In this document: positions 9,548-32,582 of the stretch, one piece after another
Layout of the letters: each line of letters opens with the position of its first letter
How positions within the stretch are numbered: the stretch's first letter is position 1
Assembly (NCBI GenBank): GCA_963702025.1
Contig: OY969699.1
Coordinates: 1,216,001-1,280,000, forward strand
Direction: 5' to 3'
Origin: an uncultured bacterium
GTDB taxonomy: Bacteria; Babelota; Babeliae; Babelales; Vermiphilaceae
DNA: 64,000 nt
The notes under the pieces: model-generated
Told to the model about the DNA's origin: nothing
The model's input: only the letters and a program-made list of their open reading frames with translations
The model's database searches: none
Position numbers and translations under genes: made by a program

Positions 9548-10408
9548 TTATAACGAGCAACTACCATTTTCACAAGAACTCTTTTGCCCCTTTTCACGAT
9601 GCTCTTTAAAAACAGCATCAATCTTTTCAAAATTCTCACTCAACATCTTAAAGCGCATTACCATAGCGGCCGGATATTCAGCAAGATCAACTTCTTGAGG
9701 ATTACCGGGAAATACGCATTTGGTAGAAGCACCATTTTTCAACAAGAATTTCACCAACTCCGTAACTTCAATCCCGCTGGCCCCAAGCATAATGATTGCC
9801 AATCCAAGCGGTGTAAACCCTTGCGCAGATACCGCGTTAATATCAGCGCCGGCATCAATCAAACGTTGTAAAGCATCAAGCTCGGCCATACTTTGAACTG
9901 ATTGGATCAGTTTATCATTGAGTGTCTTTTGATCGAGAGAACGTAAATCTTTGGGCATGCTCAATGCTTGGGTGATGCGTTCCATTAGTGTTTCTTTTGT
10001 TTGTTGCCCAATTATTTTTTCAATTAAGGTGCCCGCACTAAAAATACCAATGGTCGGAATTGACATGATCTTACATTCTTGGGCAAACTCCTTGCACTCA
10101 TCAATGTTCACTGTCGCAAAAGTATATTTACCTTTGAGCTCGTCAGCAATCTCTTCAAATATCGGCTTCATCACTTTGCAAGGGCCGCACCATTCAGCAT
10201 AGAAATCAACAATCAGAATATTGGGTATGTTTTGAACAATTGTTTTAATGTTAGCAGGAGTAAGTTGTGTTACACTCGAATTTCTTTTTGGTTCCATAGG
10301 TTCAGCCTCCTTGGCAAGTGATGATTTTTGGCTATTTGTTTTAGCATTAAAAATAGAGATTGGAATTATAAGCACTAAAAGTATTGCAACTAAGAATAGT
10401 TTATTCAT
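9548..10408 (-). CDS. Thioredoxin-ankyrin fusion with N-terminal signal/anchor and C-terminal CENGSC tail
   Basis: VDFYAEWCGPCK, SIPT; LIDAGADINA...GFTPL ankyrin; GAGGGG RBS before ATG 10408. Confidence 0.85.
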   Translation of the reverse strand: MNKLFLVAILLVLIIPISIFNAKTNSQKSSLAKEAEPMEPKRNSSVTQLTPANIKTIVQNIPNILIVDFYAEWCGPCKVMKPIFEEIADELKGKYTFATVNIDECKEFAQECKIMSIPTIGIFSAGTLIEKIIGQQTKETLMERITQALSMPKDLRSLDQKTLNDKLIQSVQSMAELDALQRLIDAGADINAVSAQGFTPLGLAIIMLGASGIEVTELVKFLLKNGASTKCVFPGNPQEVDLAEYPAAMVMRFKMLSENFEKIDAVFKEHREKGQKSSCENGSCSL

Positions 10409-10520
10409 GATATCCCCCTCAGGAATTGGCGTTTTAAAAAGTATTTTATTTCTTTGTAAAAGCACATTTAGGCAAGTATACGCCCTTTTTTGCATTATTC
10501 AACGATCAAAAATGCTTTTA

Positions 10521-11738
10521 TTACTCTACAAAAGTGATCGCCTGCCCAATTTTATCAGCGCGCCCGGTACGGCCAATACGATGAATATAATCTTCATGAG
10601 TTTGTGGCAAATCGTAGTTGATCACATGCGAAACATCATCAATATCAATCCCGCGGGCGACCACGTCAGTAGCCAAAAGAATACGAACTCTATCATTTTT
10701 AAATGAGGCCAAAGCCCTGCTGCGCTGCGCCTGAGATTTATCACCATGAATGGTAGCAACCTCAAATCCCCGTTCGTTTAACATGCGTGCCAATTTATCA
10801 ACAGCACGCCGCGTGCGTAAAAAGATAATAACTTTTTTAAATTCCGGCTTAATCAGTAAATCATGCAGGAGATCAACTTTATTTTTCAAGCCGATCTTGA
10901 TCACTGTTTGATTTACATTTTCTGCCGTCTGACGCGTTTTAACACTGATAATCACCGGATTACGCAAAAAGCCGGACATAACCTCTTTAAGTGATGGCGG
11001 AATAGTGGCTGAGAAGAATAATGAGTGCCGTTTTTGCGGCAACTTACTAATAATGTATTTAATATCATTAATAAAGCCCATATCCACCATGGTGTCCACT
11101 TCATCAAGCACAATCGCATTGTATTTATGCAGGAGCAAAATTTTATCTTGTTCCAGATCCAATAATCTGCCCGGGGTGCCGATAACAAATTGCGGATGAT
11201 GAGAAAGATCTCTAATTTGGTGCATAATATTGAGCCCGCCAATGCATAATGCGGAACTGAGTCCGGTTTTGTGTGCAAAACTTTTAAACTCACCCTGAAT
11301 TTGGCTGGCCAGTTCACGCGTTGGGGTAACAATCAATACTCGATCCGTTTTTTTGGTGAGCACATCATTGATCAACGGAATTAAAAAAGCTGCAGTTTTA
11401 CCCGTGCCGGTATTTGCTGATGCGATAACATCCTTGCCTTGCAACAAAAGTGGAATCACCTGATCTTGAATCGGCGTTGGCGTGAGATACCCTTTATGGG
11501 CAATATTCTGTTTAATCTGATCTTCAATCAAAAAATCAGCAAAGGTGTTTTTGGGGATATAGGCATTGGCTACCACCTGCTCTTCAACCTTTTTCATGAA
11601 CATTGAAGGATCGAATTTTTTAATTACTCTCTTGGATTGTCCGCGCCCCTTGCCTCCCGGCTTATGTGAACCTGAACGCCATGATCCGGACTTATTGCCA
11701 AACCCTTTTGGCCCTTTTTTACTACGATTGAATGTCAT
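10521..11738 (-). CDS. DEAD-box RNA helicase
   Basis: Q motif PTPIQ, TGTGKT, PTRELA, TPGR, LDEVD, SAT, ARGID, HRIGRTGR. Confidence 0.95.
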   Translation of the reverse strand: MTFNRSKKGPKGFGNKSGSWRSGSHKPGGKGRGQSKRVIKKFDPSMFMKKVEEQVVANAYIPKNTFADFLIEDQIKQNIAHKGYLTPTPIQDQVIPLLLQGKDVIASANTGTGKTAAFLIPLINDVLTKKTDRVLIVTPTRELASQIQGEFKSFAHKTGLSSALCIGGLNIMHQIRDLSHHPQFVIGTPGRLLDLEQDKILLLHKYNAIVLDEVDTMVDMGFINDIKYIISKLPQKRHSLFFSATIPPSLKEVMSGFLRNPVIISVKTRQTAENVNQTVIKIGLKNKVDLLHDLLIKPEFKKVIIFLRTRRAVDKLARMLNERGFEVATIHGDKSQAQRSRALASFKNDRVRILLATDVVARGIDIDDVSHVINYDLPQTHEDYIHRIGRTGRADKIGQAITFVE

Positions 11739-11896
11739 GGAATATAACCTTCATTAAGGAATTAGCTGTTTTTGATTGAATACTATCAGTATGACCTATT
11801 TAGGCCCAACCAGCAATAAAAGGCTTAAAATGGCCCTAATTTGGTCAAAATACCCTTTTAGGGTCCTTTTTGCCCAAAAAGAGCTTAATTTCCCGC

Positions 11897-11924
11897 TTGA
11901 CATTCGCCTCATATTAATTACAAT
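11897..11924 (+). promoter_or_regulatory. Sigma70-type promoter for the effector array
   Basis: TTGACA-16 nt-TACAAT, preceded by a tract of alternating A/T runs and CCC/GGC motifs (11800-11895). Confidence 0.55.
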
Positions 11925-11964
11925 TAGAATATAGTTAAAAATTAAACCTAAAATGGGGTATTCA

Positions 11965-12528
11965 ATGAAAACTAAGCTCATATTCTGTCTCAGCGGGCTC
12001 ATGCTTGCAGGCAATGCTTTGCCTATGGAAAAGGCGCATGTTTTTTACAACTATAATGAAAGTGACGAAACGCTCAAAACATATCAAAGGCTTACAACAC
12101 ATCTGAGCGGACAGGAAACAGCCAATTCATATTTACAGCGTCTGCCAAATGACCTTTTAGAAATGGTGCAAACGTATCTACCTGAGAAAAAAGAAAGTGA
12201 CAAATTAGGAGCTTATTTAAAGATACTGAATCCTTTAAATCCTGAAAATAGAAATGCCTGTACAGCATCAATCTTTTATTCTTTAATCGGGCCAGCAGTC
12301 GCGTGGTATAATTTCATGTCGAGTAGAAATTCTTCGCAAGGTCGGTTGCAACCAACTAGCTTTTTATGTAGTCAAGCAATAGCAAACACTGGAATTTTAA
12401 TCTACCTTGTAGGGACATTAAACTTAAATCGAGAAATTCAAGGTTTGGTGTTTTTATTAGGGGCTTTGTATAACATACGCCACCATACTATAAATTTAGA
12501 AAAAGCCGCCCTCGGCTTGAATAAATGA
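11965..12528 (+). CDS. Secreted/membrane protein with F-box-like motif
   Basis: Signal peptide ALP-ME; YLQRLPNDLLEMVQTYL; hydrophobic C-terminal segments. Confidence 0.55.
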   Translation: MKTKLIFCLSGLMLAGNALPMEKAHVFYNYNESDETLKTYQRLTTHLSGQETANSYLQRLPNDLLEMVQTYLPEKKESDKLGAYLKILNPLNPENRNACTASIFYSLIGPAVAWYNFMSSRNSSQGRLQPTSFLCSQAIANTGILIYLVGTLNLNREIQGLVFLLGALYNIRHHTINLEKAALGLNK

Positions 12529-22665: not shown

Positions 22666-22842
22666 TTCTACGCCAAGTCCCTCGAAAGGGCTCGGGAGTA
22701 AACACGTCCTTCCGCTCATCCTGAGTAGAAAACGTAGTTTTCATATCGAAGGACGCCTGGCTTCGCCATCACTAAAGGAAATAACATAAAGCTTAAGAGA
22801 TGTGCGAAAAAACTTGTCCGCCCAAGCTCGTAAGAGCGTAGA
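22666..22842. repeat. REP-like tRNA trailer element with nested REP modules
   Basis: TCTACGC...CGCCTGGCTTCGCCATCACT interrupted by CCCTCGAAAGGGCTCGGGAGTAAA and CCGCTCATCCTGAG...TCGAAGGA; closes with GAGCGTAGA. Confidence 0.7.
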
Positions 22843-22859: not shown

Positions 22860-22936
22860 GGGGCTGTAGCTCAGTTGGTTAGAGCGTCCGCCTGTCACGC
22901 GGAAGGTCGTGGGATCGAGGCCCATCAGCCCCGCCA
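22860..22936 (+). tRNA. tRNA-Asp(GTC), integration target, atypical T-loop
   Basis: GGGGCTG/CAGCCCC acceptor stem, CT-GTC-AC loop, T-arm GTGGG-ATCGAGG-CCCAT, CCA. Confidence 0.9.
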
Positions 22937-24382
22937 TTGTTGACGATCCGAACAATTTAGGATCAGATCAAATGGCTTAGCAGCGTCCCAGAGCAGCTTA
23001 TCATCTTCTAGTCTCAAGTTCTGAAGTACAAGCTTGATTAATTGCCGTTTTTCCTCAACTTCAGAACCGATAAATAATTCATAAGCGCGGTTAACCAGAT
23101 CCAGAACATGTTTTGAAGTTAAATAATAGTTATCTTCAGCTTCTTGTAATTTCTCAAGACGGATACTAATATCGGTCACTTGATCGCGTAGTGAAGTGTA
23201 AAATTTGTCATACTCGCTGTCAGTAATTCTCCCTTTGAGTTTATCAAGGTAAAGATTATCCATCATCTTAGTGGTGGTTTTTTGTTCGGAAGTGAGCCTA
23301 TCAAACTCTCTATTGTGAAATTCCACCTTATCCTGATGAACTGCATTAAGCGTTTCTATAATTTCCAAAATAATATCTTCAGGCATCTGGATATTTTTAA
23401 ATACTTTGCCTAATTGCTCAGTAATTGCTTCTTCTCGCAGCCATTTTGCCCCATGCTTGCCATTATATTGCGTGCAATGGTAATAGATATTGCCTTTGTG
23501 CTTCTCAGGCGTTATAGCCAATCCGCAATGGGCGCATCGAATAAGGCCCCGATATACATATGGTTTGCCGGCGAACTTGAATGGTTTTTTATTGTAACTT
23601 GCTTTCACTTGTTGTACCTGCTCAAAAAGGGTTTGAGAAATAATGGTTGGATAGCGATGGGGGTATGATTTACCTTTTACAATCATGATCCCATAAAAGA
23701 AATGATTATTAAGCATCTTCCAAAGATAGCCCTTGGCCCAATCCAACCTATAATCTTTTTTTACTTTTGCACGAAGCAAATCCATGGAATAAGCACCGGT
23801 GGCATAAAGCTCATATAATTTTCTCACAATATGCGCTTCATATTCATCCACAATGATATCGGTATTGCCAGCTGCGTTGGTGATATTCTTATAGCCATAA
23901 GGAGCCATTGCCGGCCATTCTCCTTTGCGGAGCTTCTGTTCAAGCGCGCGCTTCACGTTATCGCTAATAGCATCGGAATAATATTTGGCCAGCCCAAGGC
24001 TGATGCTAAATTGGAATTTTTCTACCGCAGAAATGCGGCTAGTAATAATCTGCCCATCAGAAACAAAATGCAATTCTATTTCATCGCTTAATGCTCGTTC
24101 ATAAAGAACGGAGATACGTTTATCAAATACATTGCGTGAAAGGCGATCCACTTTATCACAGCAAACAGCAGTCTTTTCTGTTTGGGCTAAAATGATATCG
24201 ATAATGCGATCAAATTCAGAACGATCATTGGTATAGGCGCTTTCATCAAAACTGCAAACTTGTTGAATTTCAAAGCCTTTGCTTTCGCAATATCTTTCAA
24301 GCCGTGCTACTTGTGCGGGCAATGAGTTGCCTGCTTCTCGTTGTTCTTCTGTGCTTACTCGTGCGATGAGAATTGCTTTCAT
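22925..24382 (-). CDS. Large serine recombinase (integrase)
   Basis: ARVST.EQ, DKVDRLSRN catalytic domain; APYGY recombinase domain; CAHCG...YYHC zinc ribbon; stop codon inside tRNA-Asp. Confidence 0.95.
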   Translation of the reverse strand: MKAILIARVSTEEQREAGNSLPAQVARLERYCESKGFEIQQVCSFDESAYTNDRSEFDRIIDIILAQTEKTAVCCDKVDRLSRNVFDKRISVLYERALSDEIELHFVSDGQIITSRISAVEKFQFSISLGLAKYYSDAISDNVKRALEQKLRKGEWPAMAPYGYKNITNAAGNTDIIVDEYEAHIVRKLYELYATGAYSMDLLRAKVKKDYRLDWAKGYLWKMLNNHFFYGIMIVKGKSYPHRYPTIISQTLFEQVQQVKASYNKKPFKFAGKPYVYRGLIRCAHCGLAITPEKHKGNIYYHCTQYNGKHGAKWLREEAITEQLGKVFKNIQMPEDIILEIIETLNAVHQDKVEFHNREFDRLTSEQKTTTKMMDNLYLDKLKGRITDSEYDKFYTSLRDQVTDISIRLEKLQEAEDNYYLTSKHVLDLVNRAYELFIGSEVEEKRQLIKLVLQNLRLEDDKLLWDAAKPFDLILNCSDRQQWRG

Positions 24383-24622
24383 ATTATGCTCTTGCTAAGG
24401 GGTTTAATTTTGAATCCTTAGCAGTTTAATCGCAAAGCAAAATATTTCTAGATTACGAACCAATAAACGATTATTTCATTGGTGATCACTTCGTACCAAT
24501 CCACGGAATCCTAAAAAGTATGCGAAGGCTAAAGAATAAAGAAAATTCTGACTCTACTGCGAAGATGAAAAATCCATAAAAGGAAAGAGGGTTTTTATTT
24601 CTTGTTTCATATAATTCCAGAA

Positions 24623-25861
24623 TTATTTTAGCCGAAATTTAATTTCGATTTCATTTTTATTGGCGATAGCTTCTACTAATTTGATTGATTTACCTTTGAG
24701 ATATTTATCAAAAAAATTTACCAATAAAGCCCTTGTAATTCTAATTGCTTCTTCATGAGTTATTTTGCCCGGTTCTTTTGCCTGCGTAATAAGATTCCAA
24801 TCACTAAAAGACATATGATCCGCATTTTTCAAAACGATATGATATACATCATTGGTGAGATTCTCATAAAGTTTGGCAATGCGCTCTTGGTTATCCTTTA
24901 TTACCTTGTTGTAATAATCTTCGTTCGGATGTCCGGCCGGAACGCTAAATGGCTTGCCAAAAAGAAACATAAACGGCTTATTAAAGCCAATATCTTGATT
25001 CTCACCAAAAAGCGGGCCTTCGATATCTACTCCGGCTCTACAGCGTGGATCAATCCGGCACAAAGAAACTGCTGCAGCACCACCAAATGAATGGCCCATA
25101 ATGCCAATATGCTCAAGATCAAGCTTATTGGTGAATCTATTCTTTGGATCTTGTTGATTAATTAATGCAAGCTGATCCATAACAAATTGTAGATCCTTTA
25201 CCCAGATGATTATTTCATGATTATGGGCTTTTTCGAGCTCTTCTTTGTTTTGAACAAATTCTGCCCACTGGGTAGAGCCTCTGATAATTCTGCCATCAGG
25301 AAATTCAACTGGTTCGGAAATATACGTATGATCAAGTGCCGCTACAATATAACCATGGCTGGCCAGTTCTTCAAATAAGTTTGTGGAAAGATAATGAGGG
25401 CCACCAAATCCGGGCGAAAAAAGAATGATCGGGTATTTGGATTGTTTATCACTTACAGGAGCATTAAGATATGCGTGTGTAATAACATCAGCATCAATAT
25501 AGCCGCTGCCGCCAAATAAAAATGGCTCTTTCTTTGCAAGTTCTTCTTGTATGTGAGCTTTTAACTGGGAAGAAATGTACGGAGCTTGAATTTCATTTCC
25601 TTGAAGATTTGCAGGATACCATAGATGTAGCATTAGTTCACGAAAATGATGTTTAGGATCTTGTGAATAAACTTCTTTGCGTGATGTATCAATTAAATGA
25701 TATCTTATCGTTCCAATAGCATAGGTGCCGATCGGTTTTGGCAACTTAACGGCAAATGGTTTATGATTACTCATTTTTTGTCCAACAATAACAATACCTA
25801 GGAGCAAAAAGCTAGTTAAAACTATTTTGTTTTTTAAAAAATATATCTTTATTCTTTCCAA
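24623..25861 (-). CDS. Alpha/beta hydrolase (PAF-acetylhydrolase-like)
   Basis: LFSPGFG, ELASHGYIV, GHSFGG nucleophile elbow, HMSFSD. Confidence 0.85.
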   Translation of the reverse strand: MERIKIYFLKNKIVLTSFLLLGIVIVGQKMSNHKPFAVKLPKPIGTYAIGTIRYHLIDTSRKEVYSQDPKHHFRELMLHLWYPANLQGNEIQAPYISSQLKAHIQEELAKKEPFLFGGSGYIDADVITHAYLNAPVSDKQSKYPIILFSPGFGGPHYLSTNLFEELASHGYIVAALDHTYISEPVEFPDGRIIRGSTQWAEFVQNKEELEKAHNHEIIIWVKDLQFVMDQLALINQQDPKNRFTNKLDLEHIGIMGHSFGGAAAVSLCRIDPRCRAGVDIEGPLFGENQDIGFNKPFMFLFGKPFSVPAGHPNEDYYNKVIKDNQERIAKLYENLTNDVYHIVLKNADHMSFSDWNLITQAKEPGKITHEEAIRITRALLVNFFDKYLKGKSIKLVEAIANKNEIEIKFRLK

Positions 25862-26648
25862 TAATAATCACCGAAGTAAAAAGTAAAATTAACCACAGAA
25901 TAAACCAGGTAAATGGTTTAATGTGAAAAACATTAAGACATAAATCATAAATACTATGAAAAAGTATAGCGCTTAAAATACTGCGATTATTTTTTACGTA
26001 TAACCAATTGGTTATGATGGTTATTAGGAATAAGCCAGTAAAATAAATAAATGTCTGAAATAATCCCAAATCCCAAATTTCTTTTTGCAAACCCCCATTA
26101 TGAATGAAGAATAAAGGAACATGCCATAAACCCCATATGGCACCAAACATTAAGGATGTTTTTATTAAATTAAACTTATCTCTTAAGCTATCAATGCAAT
26201 ATCCGCGCCATCCTATTTCTTCAAAAGGCCCAATGAGAAATATCACCAATAAAAGCATCAAAAAATTTTTTCCTTGTAAAAGGAGATCGTTTGATTGAGT
26301 TATAAAAGAAATTTGATTTGCCGGTTGTCCGAAAAATAAGGATATAATTATTGCAAGTACAATGAGAGATGGGAATAATAACAAAATAATAGGAATAAAT
26401 TTTCTTTTAATACTGTCAGGTCGTAATCTTTGAAAAAAATCATTCCATAACTCTTTATTTCTCGATTTAATTAACATTATTATCGTAGCGAGTGCCGGAC
26501 CACTTAAACCAACAAGAACTAAAGGCAATAAAAGATAGTGCATTGATGGTTGCCAACTTGCATAAATAGCAAAAAACCAAGGTAACCAACTCAGAAAAAA
26601 AGTTATTAAAAAGAAATTTAATGGTTCATATGTATATGTTTTTAACAT
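25812..26648 (-). CDS. CPBP/CAAX family intramembrane protease
   Basis: EEIGWRGY, WGLWH, AILFH; multiple TM helices. Confidence 0.9.
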   Translation of the reverse strand: MLKTYTYEPLNFFLITFFLSWLPWFFAIYASWQPSMHYLLLPLVLVGLSGPALATIIMLIKSRNKELWNDFFQRLRPDSIKRKFIPIILLLFPSLIVLAIIISLFFGQPANQISFITQSNDLLLQGKNFLMLLLVIFLIGPFEEIGWRGYCIDSLRDKFNLIKTSLMFGAIWGLWHVPLFFIHNGGLQKEIWDLGLFQTFIYFTGLFLITIITNWLYVKNNRSILSAILFHSIYDLCLNVFHIKPFTWFILWLILLFTSVIIIGKNKDIFFKKQNSFN

Positions 26649-26715
26649 GAGTGACTCTTTAATTATAAAGAAAACTTATTTAATAAAAAATTAATACTTA
26701 AAAATAACATTAAAG

Positions 26716-27465
26716 TTAATTATCTTGTAACGTTTTAGAATTAGCAATCATATATTCTGAATTCACCCAATAACCATCCATTACATGTTTAAATCCCCAT
26801 TGGCTGTAAAGATCTAATACGTCTTTATTAGTCACTCGAGAATGAACAATAATGCGCTGGACATCAGGTATGATTTTAAAAATTGAGCTCATAAGAATTT
26901 TGCGCAATTCGTTTCGTTGAACTTCAGAAACCATGCCAACCATTCCAGCTTTAATTGTTCCTACTGGATACTCCGGATTTGTTAAGAATTGAATAAATCC
27001 CAATAACTTTCCGTGTGCATCACAAGCGGTCACCAAATAATGAATCTCACCCTGAGCACTAAATCTGCTAAAATCTGTGGTTAAAAAAAATTGATTGAAA
27101 ATCGCAGTAATCTTTTCCTTCACATCGTTCCAATCAATACTCTTTTCTTGGAATAATGGCGAAAGTGACTTTAAGAAATGATCCTGAGGAATCGCTTCTG
27201 GATGAATCTGAGCAAAATTAAATTCTTGGTTAGCATACGCTTGAATTAATATGTTGCTCACATCTTGAATGCTCTGAGTCAATTGAGGTGATGTACCTTC
27301 AACTTTTTGAAAGGTTAAATGGATTTCTTGGCCATTATTATCATGAGTTACAAAACTATTCATGGTATTTTCTCGTTTATTATAAAGTTCATTGGAATGT
27401 GTTGCATATGTAACAAAAAATAGAGCTATGCCCATTAAGCACCATGCTAAGGGCATTTTATCCAA
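26716..27465 (-). CDS. Putative GNAT-fold protein
   Basis: GKLLGF, N..VLDLYSQWGF motif; start codon uncertain. Confidence 0.55.
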   Translation of the reverse strand: MDKMPLAWCLMGIALFFVTYATHSNELYNKRENTMNSFVTHDNNGQEIHLTFQKVEGTSPQLTQSIQDVSNILIQAYANQEFNFAQIHPEAIPQDHFLKSLSPLFQEKSIDWNDVKEKITAIFNQFFLTTDFSRFSAQGEIHYLVTACDAHGKLLGFIQFLTNPEYPVGTIKAGMVGMVSEVQRNELRKILMSSIFKIIPDVQRIIVHSRVTNKDVLDLYSQWGFKHVMDGYWVNSEYMIANSKTLQDN

Positions 27466-27690
27466 TTTAAAAGTATATATATCCTAAAATTAGGGAAATA
27501 AGGCTCTAAGCCTAAATATTGTTTAATAAGATATGTCTATGCCTTAAAAGGCTGATAAGACATTAAAAAGAAGAAGAAACTTTCATAAAAACGCCCCCGG
27601 ATACTATCCACAGAAAGGAGACCAAAAAACAAATAACATTTTAATAATAAGCTAAATAGCTATTAAATCAAGGTTGCCTTGCAAGAATAA

Positions 27691-28806
27691 CTAATATATC
27701 TGCAAGGTTTTAAACTTCAATATATGCTCTCTAATTATTCCCAAAGGCTTTTGAATCCCTGGAAGCTTTATATCTTTTGCTTCCCCCATAAGCCGAGTCC
27801 AATCCCTTTGATTCCGCTTTGATAGCATGCCCCTTAATTCCCGGATATTAATAATTTCCATGGCTTTTGATAATCCATACATCTGCAATATCCTTTTGGA
27901 ACCAAGTTCAGGATTATTGAATATTAAATCAGCAAGTAGGGCTTTATCATTGGCAGCCTTATAATCAAGCAAGGGTGGCCTTTTGCTTTCCAGCTCATCA
28001 ATGTAATGCAAAAGAATTTTCTTTGCATTGGCAGCCTTAAAAAGGCTTTTAAAAGATAAATCTGATTTGATGCTGAGCTTATTAAAGAGCTGTTTAATTT
28101 TCTGCTGTTTATTCAAGCGCACTTCCATGCGCAATATTTCTAATTTATTTTTTCTTTTTGCAACCCGGGGAAAGAGATTCAATTGCAATGCACTATCTTT
28201 TTCAATTGCACGCTTATCGCTTTGTTTTGCTTTTTTAAGATCCTTAATTTTATCATAAAATACCACTTCATATGAATTGCAGTGCCATTTATAGCTATGC
28301 CCTTCATTACGATAATCCGTTTGATTTACATCAAGGGAAAGCTTGATATTCGCTTCTTTGATCTTATTAATATAGTGATAGGGCGTTGAGCCATCCGTGA
28401 GGGCAATATTTTTAGAGTAATGAATTGCTGATATGGGTGCTTGCGCAAGAACATCGGGAGCAACAATAACCCCCATTTGATTTAAAATAGATGAGAGCTT
28501 AGAGAGCAGAGGCTGCAGATCTTTCCCTTTTAGCTCTTCAAAATTATTGCCATAAAAGAGCTTAGGCAATGATAGCTCAATTCTGAGTACTATTTCTTTT
28601 GGATTCCGTATATTGGTTCGTAATGTGAGCCGTGGCTTATATATTCCTGCAAGCAACTCTTTCTTGGTAGGATTCTGCTTTGATTGAATTCCGTGAACGG
28701 CACTTGATCTATTATTTGTAATCCATCGTGCGGATGGTAAAAATTTATCTGGATCAGTAATTTGGAATAAATCTTGGCTGAGGAGTAATACTACTGTATC
28801 GATCAT
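27691..28806 (-). CDS. Rolling-circle replication initiator-like protein (phage gpII/CRI, Rep_trans-related)
   Basis: MIDT start, IELSLPKLFYGNN, VFYDKIKDL, ILRMEVRL motifs. Confidence 0.7.
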   Translation of the reverse strand: MIDTVVLLLSQDLFQITDPDKFLPSARWITNNRSSAVHGIQSKQNPTKKELLAGIYKPRLTLRTNIRNPKEIVLRIELSLPKLFYGNNFEELKGKDLQPLLSKLSSILNQMGVIVAPDVLAQAPISAIHYSKNIALTDGSTPYHYINKIKEANIKLSLDVNQTDYRNEGHSYKWHCNSYEVVFYDKIKDLKKAKQSDKRAIEKDSALQLNLFPRVAKRKNKLEILRMEVRLNKQQKIKQLFNKLSIKSDLSFKSLFKAANAKKILLHYIDELESKRPPLLDYKAANDKALLADLIFNNPELGSKRILQMYGLSKAMEIINIRELRGMLSKRNQRDWTRLMGEAKDIKLPGIQKPLGIIREHILKFKTLQIY

Positions 28807-29131
28807 ATGCTTTACCAATGCTGCAAATTTTAAAGTAATTAAATATGCATGATAAAGTATCGATAATTAAAAGCAAGCATGTCCGGCGAAGCCTTGGCGA
28901 AGAGGGAAGGGGCCCGCATTTTTGCGAGCCTTCTTTATAGGTTTTTTCTAAATCTATTTTCTTTGTCTTTTTTGATCGAGTTCTTGTTGTAACAGTATAT
29001 TCTTCTGGATTGATTCGCTTATTAATTTGCACAAGCAATCCAACGAATGCTGCGAACTTCTTACGATCATCACAATTTAATATAGCGCTTATAGGCAAGC
29101 GAGATACCGCTCTATTCTTCTTTGATATCAT
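28754..29131 (-). CDS. Small basic hypothetical protein with in-frame REP-like insertion
   Basis: GAG-containing RBS-like sequence upstream; SSPRLRRT encoded by the palindrome at ~28878-28908. Confidence 0.45.
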   Translation of the reverse strand: MISKKNRAVSRLPISAILNCDDRKKFAAFVGLLVQINKRINPEEYTVTTRTRSKKTKKIDLEKTYKEGSQKCGPLPSSPRLRRTCLLLIIDTLSCIFNYFKICSIGKAYDRYSSITPQPRFIPNY

Positions 29132-29408
29132 ATAACTCTCGATTCTATGCGAGTATGATCATGCTGATTAATTTATCAACATTGGAAATAAGTAAATTAC
29201 GATTGTTATGGATTGAGCTTATTTGCTCTCAGTTGCTAAGCAGAGATCATTCTGCCCGTTGAGCAAATGCCAGCTTGGTGATGAGATCAGATATTGTAAT
29301 CTGATAAATTTGATATAGTTCATTGCTTTACCCTCAGTTGTATAGGTGCGCTTCAAAATACATTGAGGGTAATAATAGATGGGATTATAGTGAATTGCAA
29401 GAATTTAC

Positions 29409-30272
29409 TCACTTTTTTAATTTTGAGAGTTCTTTCTCACAGACATGTTTCAATTCAGGAAGAAAGCATCCATATAAATATTGAGCAGCTGTGGCATGAA
29501 TTCTTTCGAGATTATCGGATAGGCATACTATTGTGCCTCCCAAGGAAATATATGGAATATTATTTTGTAAGCATAACCTCCAAAAAACTGCTCCCGATGC
29601 TCCATAAACTAATAGATTTTTGGGATTCGGAAGTTTCCAGTAATGGACTTTGGATTTTTGATTATAAGCTAAACGTTCACCACCACCAATAAAGGACTCT
29701 GCTAGCATTATCTTATCTATAATTTCATTTGCCCCTCGATAAAAACCTGAGATAACTGAAACCTCTGGTGCAGCTAAATCTCTTTCTTGATTTTCATCTA
29801 AGTCGTAAAATTTTGAATTATTAATCAATTTATGATCTGCAATATTTTCCCCAAACCCAATACAAATAAAACCAAGATCCGGATCAAACCTACCGGAAGA
29901 CCGGATTCCATCTCTATGAGCTTGAGCATAAAAAAATGGAAAATTGGCTAAACAACCAACAACAAAATCTTTTATAAGTTTTGATAAAATTATAAATTGA
30001 CGGCCTTTATCATCAACAATAATAGATTTACAAAGTGATTGAACATTAGGATCTGAATCATCTAATACATGCTTTGCGGTCAAAATACCATATACTTTGA
30101 CAATTTTATCTTCTATTAAGGTATCAAATTTGATAAAAGTACCGGATGCGATAGGAAATTCTAAATTTGTGCCTAGTGAAACTTGATACAATGCCATATG
30201 TTCATTAAGAATTTCTGATAATTGATTTAATGAAAAGGGGGATTCTGATTGCATAAATATCTCATTAATCAT
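29409..30272 (-). CDS. Trypsin-like serine protease domain protein
   Basis: ASGTF, ILTAKHV (His), PDLGF (Asp), GASG (Ser). Confidence 0.6.
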   Translation of the reverse strand: MINEIFMQSESPFSLNQLSEILNEHMALYQVSLGTNLEFPIASGTFIKFDTLIEDKIVKVYGILTAKHVLDDSDPNVQSLCKSIIVDDKGRQFIILSKLIKDFVVGCLANFPFFYAQAHRDGIRSSGRFDPDLGFICIGFGENIADHKLINNSKFYDLDENQERDLAAPEVSVISGFYRGANEIIDKIMLAESFIGGGERLAYNQKSKVHYWKLPNPKNLLVYGASGAVFWRLCLQNNIPYISLGGTIVCLSDNLERIHATAAQYLYGCFLPELKHVCEKELSKLKK

Positions 30273-30303
30273 TAATTAAGTAGGCTATACTATCAATATA
30301 TAC

Positions 30304-30414
30304 TTAGGCTTTGATTAATTCAATGCGGAAAGAAGAAAACACCGTTTGTATATGGCTTAATGATATAGTAAACTTAATTTCTCCGTTCCTGAATGCGTCA
30401 ACTAAGCACCGCCA
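30304..30414 (-). other. Right att site and displaced 3' end of the recombinase gene (34 codons)
   Basis: Reverse strand reads WR-CLVDAFRNGEIKFTISLSHIQTVFSSFRIELIKA-stop in frame with the recombinase across the CCGCCA core. Confidence 0.75.
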
Positions 30415-30470
30415 GTCTACGCTTCAGAACTGAAGCTTCGCCTGGCTGTCGCCATCACTTATGGAAATAA
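30415..30470. repeat. REP-like tRNA trailer element (displaced from tRNA-Asp)
   Basis: GTCTACGCTT...GCTTCGCCTGGCTGTCGCCATCACTT..GGAAATAA matches the trailers at 22415 and 22666-22783. Confidence 0.75.
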
Positions 30471-31934: not shown

Positions 31935-32582
31935 ATGAAATTTAATAATCGTGATACTGCTGTTGTTGTAATCGATCCACAAAATGATTTTCTCAACCAG
32001 AAGGGTACGAGTTGGGGCTTGGTTGGCGCCAGCGTTACCAAGAATGGTATTATCGGGAACTTAGAGCGGCTTTTCAAGTCCGCAAAAGCGAAAGACTACC
32101 AGGTGCTCATCTCACCCCATTATTTCTATCCCACCGATGGCGACTGGAAGATCAATGGCCCGCTGGAAGCGGTAGAGTTGAAAACACATACCTTCGCGCG
32201 GACCGGACCACTCGATTTAACCGGATTTACAAATTCAGGCGCAGACTGGCTAGACCGTTTTAAGCCATACATCAACGATGGCAAGACAATTGTTGTTAGC
32301 CCACACAAGGTGTTTGGCCCGCAGACCAATGACCTCGTTTTACAGCTACGCAAGAGAGGAATCGGCAAGATCATTCTGGGCGGAATGTTGGCGAACATGT
32401 GCGTTGAATCCCATTTGCGCGAGTTCCTTGAGCAAGGGTTCGAAGTTGCCGTTGTAAAAGATGCAATCGCTGGGCCCATTCATCCGGAATGGGGCAATGG
32501 CTATGAGGCGGCGCTGATCAACTACCACTTTCTGGCGCATGCGGTGCTATCGACTGAAGAAGCAGTTGCACGCATGGCATAA
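31935..32582 (+). CDS. Isochorismatase-family cysteine hydrolase
   Basis: VVIDPQNDF, PHK, GMLANMCVES, VVKDA. Confidence 0.9.
   Translation: MKFNNRDTAVVVIDPQNDFLNQKGTSWGLVGASVTKNGIIGNLERLFKSAKAKDYQVLISPHYFYPTDGDWKINGPLEAVELKTHTFARTGPLDLTGFTNSGADWLDRFKPYINDGKTIVVSPHKVFGPQTNDLVLQLRKRGIGKIILGGMLANMCVESHLREFLEQGFEVAVVKDAIAGPIHPEWGNGYEAALINYHFLAHAVLSTEEAVARMA

Follow-up and report, generated by a model that had tools for sequence, protein, structure and literature searches.

A recombinase gene whose 3' end is exchanged by integration has precedent in DsiB, a serine recombinase, and in the phage Mx8. DsiB is the large serine recombinase of the Dehalococcoides ssrA islands. The 3' end of its gene always overlaps attL and continues into the antisense strand of the targeted RNA gene, and the authors who described it proposed that full function requires the circle or a position downstream of a neighbouring island (McMurdie et al., 2011; PMC3146451). 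In Mx8, attP lies inside int, and on integration IntP acquires a new 3' end with which the enzyme is active and its specificity changed, described as a 'molecular switch' (PMC6070905; PMC4383910). The suicidal integrases of the archaeal elements SSV1, pTN3 and pT26-2 also carry att inside the integrase gene and give rise to chimeric genes when copies recombine, and the review that describes them treats self-disrupting recombinases as exclusive to archaea (PMC8371274). Here we analyse a window of 64,000 nucleotides (the whole stretch of DNA, positions 1,216,001 to 1,280,000 of contig OY969699.1 in assembly GCA_963702025.1, from an uncultured bacterium of the Vermiphilaceae, Babelota), in which a large serine integrase gene (int) is split between the two ends of an island at a tRNA-Asp gene. 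Canonical large serine integrases have the att site outside the gene and their direction set by a separate recombination directionality factor (RDF); the control of direction in serine integrases is under active study, and identifying RDFs has proved difficult. In this locus the attachment site lies within int, the island boundaries are those of its relatives, the detached 3' end (the tail) is selected at the protein level, and genes with integrase and tail fused occur in nature.

The two ends of the island and the detached tail

ARAGORN places tRNA-Asp(GTC) at 22860-22936 on the plus strand, and an island of 7.5 kb sits at its 3' end. The features at the two ends are:

22860..22936, plus strand: tRNA-Asp(GTC), the integration target (ARAGORN); its final GCCA would come from the element side of the putative crossover
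22931..22936, plus strand: attL core CCGCCA; the putative crossover dinucleotide CC (22931-22932) is the last two bases of the acceptor stem
22939..22945, plus strand: P' dyad arm GTTGACG, within the int coding sequence
22925..24382, minus strand: large serine integrase, integrated form, 485 amino acids, its last codons in the antisense of tRNA-Asp
30304..30408, minus strand: detached 3' end of int, 34 codons and a stop (from the joined frame, profile and selection tests)
30396..30402, plus strand: P dyad arm CGTCAAC, within the tail coding sequence
30409..30414, plus strand: attR core CCGCCA (repeat match, end of homology in relatives, and empty-site joint 22930-30409 in one contig)
30415..30457, plus strand: host-side flank, a short hairpin-like repeat of a kind that directly follows tRNA-Asp in relatives lacking int at this site (L087/L127, L094/L128)

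The block of identity shared by the ends at 22931 and 30409 is exactly 6 bp, and joining the ends in silico brings CGTCAAC and GTTGACG into a perfect 7-bp dyad, 6 bp either side of CC. This 7-bp run was unique to the CC centre among 12 core centres tried, and no CCGCCA copy in the window, of 10 in all, produced it except that at 30409. Pooled over 29 reconstructed sites, the best dyad centre is again in the window's register (0.43 complementary vs 0.13-0.33 at 13 other centres); the dyad score was not used to select attR because it gave the correct attR the top rank in some loci only. Short att sites with a dyad around a shared 2-bp crossover are those of a serine integrase. The Trp483 codon of the integrase is the antisense of the tRNA CCA end within the attL core, and the frame of the in-silico circle continues through the core into the tail at 30304-30408 to give a protein of 518 amino acids. 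The original prediction, made from the letters alone, had placed attP inside the integrase gene and had given the shared CCGCCA ends, the CC-centred 7-bp dyad and the frames of 485 and 518 residues; all of these were exact on recomputation. In two sequencing runs (X2 and X3) a piece of 31 nt resembling the hairpin-like repeats is inserted within the attP arm at 30398.

The proposed island boundaries are borne out by relatives, in which homology ends at the same attR: in G005, G006, G007, G017 and G003, DNA similarity to the right end of the window stops within 10 bp of attR and the cargo differs. In G018 and G030, a hairpin-like flank similar to the sequence after attR in the window comes immediately after tRNA-Asp, G018 having a relic further on, and in one contig of run X1, 22930 is joined to 30409, which is the predicted empty site, the short side of this joint being only 24 bases. 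The short hairpin-like repeats of the window (22666-22790 and 30415-30457) end in GCCA and follow tRNA ends, and the repeat at 22666-22790 has many dispersed copies in the same genome.

In the integrated state an in-frame stop lies 3 codons before the core and no in-frame ATG is present upstream of the tail, so the tail is not producible from the integrated window. The stop-free frame was rejected as evidence on its own, since 34 open codons arise in 6.2% of 20,000 shuffles (P ~0.06), and outside support from homologs was therefore needed. A tail profile was made from the far-end tails of 7 other loci, found by DNA core matching with the window excluded, and it scored the window tail at E 5.9e-18. 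Across 77 fetched loci and the window, the profile matched at E<1e-3 in 34 loci, with 37/37 matches on the integrase strand. The tail was upstream of the integrase (Int) in 23 of the 32 loci with at least 11 kb of flank (window counted), two of the nine tail-less loci being resolved with longer flanks, and the crossover dinucleotide matched the Int end, in frame, in 29/32. A library-wide search gave 192 tail proteins at E<=0.001, and among the matches listed the tail was the C-terminus in 144/150 and the Int C-terminal profile matched in 23/150 tail-bearing proteins. Against Pfam and the sequences of solved structures the tail, which was not searched or folded alone, had no significant match, and a region search with the tail of the homolog P0049 matched only P0049 itself.

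Codons 2-9 of the tail overlap the att arm. Over codons 10-30, outside the arm, the ratio of nonsynonymous to synonymous change (pN/pS) in 31 tails (picked with the protein profile, 1 tail having been dropped for register) was 0.44 in frame vs 0.93 and 1.64 off frame, with 0 stops in frame vs 50 and 80 off frame. The window together with 6 tails that occupy this tRNA-Asp site in genomes of the same family (plain DNA similarity also reveals 5 of them) gave 0.46 vs 1.06 and 1.79 off frame, and over both tail sets the off-frame stops numbered 12-80 vs 0 in frame. DNA identity drops to background after ~90-105 nt, where the tail frame ends. Judged from these patterns of substitution, the tail is under protein-level selection. 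The conserved motif had been guessed as W..L.DAFR, and this guess is upheld by the homolog alignment, which confirms that the tail is conserved and gives the consensus PLVDxFxN, with conservation in the first 28 residues and a C-terminus variable in length and sequence.

The integrase matches the Pfam families Resolvase (PF00239, E 3.4e-20), Recombinase (PF07508) and Zn_ribbon_recom (PF13408), all above cut-off. The Ser nucleophile and the D-R-x-x-R motif are present (S10, D79, R80 and R83 invariant in 47 sequences), the zinc-ribbon residues Cys283, Cys286, Cys303 and His310 are invariant, Pro470-Phe471 and Trp483 are further marked residues, and long helices of a coiled-coil part are predicted at 335-439 in P0049. 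The predicted fold is like that of canonical large serine integrases (Foldseek E 2.7e-16; VIA Z 13-14), and an NCBIfam equivalog score of 72 bits, vs cut-offs of 700-900, places the protein outside the SCCmec group CcrA/CcrB/CcrC. By its sequence the feature is a member of the large serine integrases. Because solved integrases (LI, Bxb1, phiC31 and entries 9dxh/9y66/9dxd) align only to residues 468-478 of the P0049 model, one phiC31 row reaching 500, the short form as modelled is the whole canonical enzyme and the tail an add-on. That integration truncates the recombinase, as first proposed, is thus right in that the C-terminus changes and overstated in that the catalytic, recombinase, zinc-ribbon and coiled-coil parts are all kept.

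Relatives, fused genes and gene content

Many of the integrase relatives that carry a name come from metagenome-assembled genomes of Babeliales/Dependentiae and Patescibacteria. Among the 77 loci, 66 cover the integrase end, and in 51 of these the related integrase reads into the antisense of a tRNA 3' end (Asn 17, Asp 9, Arg 8, Glu 6 and Gln 1 by ARAGORN; 10 by T-loop motif only); the remaining 15 mostly have a longer non-tRNA end or a contig end. At ten loci (L011, L012, L016, L025, L033, L034, L051, L053, L070, L074) the target tRNA has a T-loop but escaped ARAGORN run without intron search, and these are possibly intron-containing tRNA-Asn genes. The integrase has spread over at least five tRNA types with the split register kept (Trp codon as the antisense of CCA): the crossover dinucleotide varies with the tRNA and the register is constant. 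In a tree of 43 Int C-terminal halves the integrases at Asp, Glu, Arg and Gln are separated from those at Asn by a moderately supported split (90/86). Large serine integrases of this kind routinely use tRNA 3' ends, a usage given as not known in a 2014 database paper (Islander, PMC4383910), although a report of a small serine recombinase at tRNA-Ser already existed. Among 16 pattern matches in viral contigs there was no Int relative.

Of the 120 nearest proteins, 119 could be aligned and 117 of these retain Trp483; nothing is conserved after it in integrated forms. By their ends, 83 of the 120 stop within 4 residues of Trp483, 27 continue in tRNA antisense (pattern-based), 6 have a second tail type, 1 has the same tail type as the window and 2 are of other kinds, the last protein being the unaligned one.

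Natural fusions of integrase and tail were found in P0049 (516 amino acids, 71% identical to the window protein), L036, L102/105/106, L104, L112 and L117, and the 23 listed library proteins that match the Int C-terminal profile are further fusions by that criterion. In the same genome as the window, an array at tRNA-Arg(TCT) (C1:36,700-71,650, L129) holds two broken close integrases, each in frame into the tail of the next island. Entry of a second island at the same tRNA end would give the displaced integrase the tail of the newcomer, in frame. The array begins with an island of 24 kb whose integrase is distant (31% identical) and continues with the two fused integrases and then two more tails. 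At tRNA-Asp in another genome (L126 in G003, 90-1510), a 1.4-kb integrase-less remnant keeps the tail and attR. A longer direct repeat bounds this remnant, and the syntenic ankyrin gene comes after it. Extra tail copies lie inside or downstream of elements in L077 (~10215-12300) and L048 (~5285), one starting at a stop codon, which suggests older stacked insertions.

A second tail family, with an LRxFxW motif, forms in-frame fusions with this integrase type (P0019, P0034, P0059, P0077, P0078; L020:11446, L038:11446) and barely matches the profile of the first. In the same genome as the window, an integrase at C1:986,541-988,004 (34% identical) reads into antisense tRNA-Gln. A tail of the second type at ~1,019,230, 32.7 kb from this integrase, was considered as its partner and set aside, there being no core match and no dyad, so that the pairing is unproven.

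All genes of the element are on the minus strand, and on the circle they run in one direction from int through the tail and cargo to rep. The remaining genes are:

24623..25861, minus strand: cargo, alpha/beta hydrolase (PAF-AH_p_II, family match)
25812..26648, minus strand: cargo, Rce1-like CAAX protease family (family match)
26716..27465, minus strand: cargo, weak candidate GNAT acetyltransferase (RimI match at E 0.004, well short of cut-off)
27691..28818, minus strand: Rep-like gene, possible rolling-circle initiator, common to 27/32 elements
28754..29131, minus strand: small open reading frame (ORF), first ~45 residues kept in 3 related elements, candidate regulator or RDF
29409..30272, minus strand: cargo, 287-residue ORF of no family, starting 31 nt after the tail stop codon

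Int, the tail and the Rep-like gene form the element core (the last in 27/32). The Rep-like gene has no Pfam match, a weak match to phrog_702 (PHROG, E 6e-4) and Atlas neighbour clusters labelled Phage_CRI on 25-31% of members, which is a lead only. Comparing the gene content of 32 elements revealed no RDF candidate conserved across all of them. The stretch upstream of the Rep-like gene that comprises the small ORF and non-coding sequence (28754-29400) is 81-85% identical in close relatives and is possibly an origin or regulator. In a scan for promoters and terminators, promoters were no more frequent than in shuffled sequence (35 vs 33.4) and the junctions showed nothing specific. The flanks are rich in ankyrin genes, which together with the lineages of the integrase relatives points to a host in the Babeliae. 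Outside the island an isochorismatase-family gene (31935-32582) has 51% GC in a background of 37%.

Possible roles of the tail

We propose that the chromosomal copy of the island would encode a complete tail-less integrase and the excised circle the same enzyme with the tail. Barring help in trans, integration must be the work of the long form, the only one that a newly arrived circle would make, and excision that of the short form, the only one that a lone integrated copy would make. That the long form integrates and resists excision while the short form excises is, in our judgement, evenly poised. The further step to a self-toggling serine integrase, in which recombination rewrites the enzyme so that the tail form integrates and the tail-less form excises with no separate RDF, is put forward tentatively. 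The tail would likely shield the directionality-factor site or hold the coiled coil in the integration path, so that the enzyme stays set for integration.

The position of the tail is consistent with such a role. P0049, a natural long protein, was folded with 63 alignment rows, and the model (mean predicted local distance difference test score, pLDDT, of 82.9; tail blocks 81-84) shows the tail as a helix-loop-helix (helix 484-491, ordered linker, helix 501-511). Residues 473-476 of the model align to 535-537 of 9dxh/9y66/9dxd (Z 13.5-14.0, root-mean-square deviation 24-31 A, 438-442 aligned), which we take to be the SPbeta integrase structures of the RDF study. From the alignment end points SPbeta F532 is placed at ~469-473, around the invariant Phe471, and the tail starts 12 residues after Phe471. 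The extreme C-terminus of SprA is reportedly part of the directionality toggle, in work by Abe from 2021. RDFs bind the junction of DBD2 and the coiled coil and flank F532 (PMC11722253; PMC11795197), and F532 of SPbeta Int has been linked to directionality, with RDF residues either side (PMC11722253). An RDF fused to the C-terminus of an integrase switches direction via intra-subunit contact (PMC5737554), and in Mx8 IntP a new 3' end alters specificity while the enzyme stays active (PMC6070905).

Several points weigh against this proposal. A first, shallower fold (7 full-length rows) gave a tail pLDDT of 40-49, the P0049 model gives no contacts for tail packing, and the mapping of F532 comes from alignment end points at high deviation and is an argument of position, not docking. 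The pN/pS of ~0.45 is moderate, from non-independent pairs and, for the 31 tails, a profile-chosen set, and no tail of the first type was found in 7/32 well-flanked loci (L020, L021, L037, L038, L045, L050, L066). The fused genes with readable context are tandem arrays, not circles, and no circle junction was found in 8 public runs, which hold contigs of related strains only and are weak evidence either way. In 14 Patescibacteria-type elements (the tRNA-Asn group) an xis-like helix-turn-helix gene is shared, so that a separate RDF may exist there; these elements also share a SpoVG-like small gene, both labels being by sequence reading, and the window has neither. The only tethered module that has been tested, an Int-RDF fusion, pushes to excision, which is the opposite direction.

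The tail could instead be a dial of activity or stability, the long form being fully active and the short form damped so that excision is rare, or the tail end being a degron that limits integrase from multicopy circles; we regard this as possible rather than probable. DsiB was proposed to be 'only fully functional on the circularized element' (PMC3146451), and the tails end in non-polar residues, Ala being last in 8/32 and a charged residue in 2/32 vs 6% and 33% in 1000 host ORFs, a rough comparison in that the tails are related and come from several hosts; Ala, Val or Ile is last in 38% of 140 library tails. However, conservation is in the first 28 residues and not at the variable C-terminus, the tail is predicted to be folded, and the short form ends where solved full-length large serine recombinases end. 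An ssrA-like degron in particular was rejected, as the tail ends vary and the host tmRNA tag was not identified.

Recruitment by the tail of a partner (the Rep-like protein, a host factor or transfer machinery), coupling replication or hand-over to integration while a separate RDF sets direction and both forms recombine alike, we hold to be unlikely. It would fit a core made up only of Int, the tail and the Rep-like gene (27/32) and the single gene direction on the circle from int to rep, and replication proteins do serve as RDFs for other large serine recombinases (PMC11795197). The tail is nevertheless kept in the 5/32 elements without a Rep match and in the Int-less remnant of G003, and a single Int type is found fused in frame to tails from different families.

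It is quite unlikely that the tail acts as a tethered RDF, whereby the long form would favour excision, block re-integration, lock the circle out during replication and flush neighbours from tandem arrays, with integration requiring removal of the tail. Its size and position are compatible with this, the SPbeta RDF being only 58 residues and acting via one helix (PMC11722253), and Int fusions with a C-terminal RDF favour attL x attR (PMC5737554). Set against this, a naive host receives the long gene only, which must integrate, and long-form junctions persist in chromosomal tandem arrays, though several Int copies there are broken. That the tail is a neutral open frame, maintained by DNA-level constraint on the att arm, is highly improbable. 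The 6% chance of a stop-free frame in the window alone and the overlap of codons 2-9 with the arm lend themselves to this reading, but it is already disfavoured: beyond the arm, over codons 10-30, change is biased to third positions and no stops occur, and identity falls to background where the frame ends.

Should the long form integrate and the short form excise, this would be a compact reversible integrase for genome engineering, with both directions obtained from one gene by adding or removing 34 residues. Here a natural pair of isoforms, long and short, comes with precisely defined att sites and allows a direct test of whether a tail in cis sets direction. Among the 120 nearest proteins in the databases, 110 either stop no more than 4 residues from the conserved Trp or continue into tRNA antisense, so pipelines that mine for recombinases would clone the short form and could be testing the wrong isoform.

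Comparison with known systems

In the literature covered, a search found no follow-up test of the 2011 DsiB proposal, and in main texts only it returned no description of this tRNA-targeting family or of the tail, nor did a look-up of terms in PMC10083194, PMC12884075, PMC13626063 and PMC6002521; TIGER 2020 may already cover the layout. SPbeta SprA, Bxb1, phiC31 and LI/A118 share with the present integrase the domain order, the fold and short att sites with a central 2-bp crossover, but none aligns to the tail. Split tyrosine integrases, to which the original prediction likened the locus, also have two gene states, but they lose the catalytic domain, and Mx8 IntP and DsiB fit better. The archaeal suicidal integrases are of the tyrosine family, and integration cuts off their catalytic domain and leaves inactive pieces (PMC8371274), whereas here the enzyme is a serine recombinase whose catalytic and DNA-binding domains stay.

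As with Mx8 IntP, the C-terminus is replaced on integration with the catalytic domain intact, at the level of sequence and model. Mx8 IntP is a phage tyrosine recombinase, and its chemistry and control of directionality differ. As in DsiB, the 3' end of int overlaps attL with the stop codon outside the island, but the DsiB target is a tmRNA gene (ssrA), whereas here it is tRNA-Asp, Asn, Arg, Glu or Gln, and the six-gene module of DsiB, with DsiA, ParB and Mom, contrasts with the hydrolase, Rce1, Rep-like or unmatched ORFs of these islands. The sections on DsiB show no conserved tail, selection or natural fusion (PMC3146451). The integrase described here belongs neither to DsiB nor to the archaeal split-integrase family, but in layout it is DsiB- and Mx8-like.

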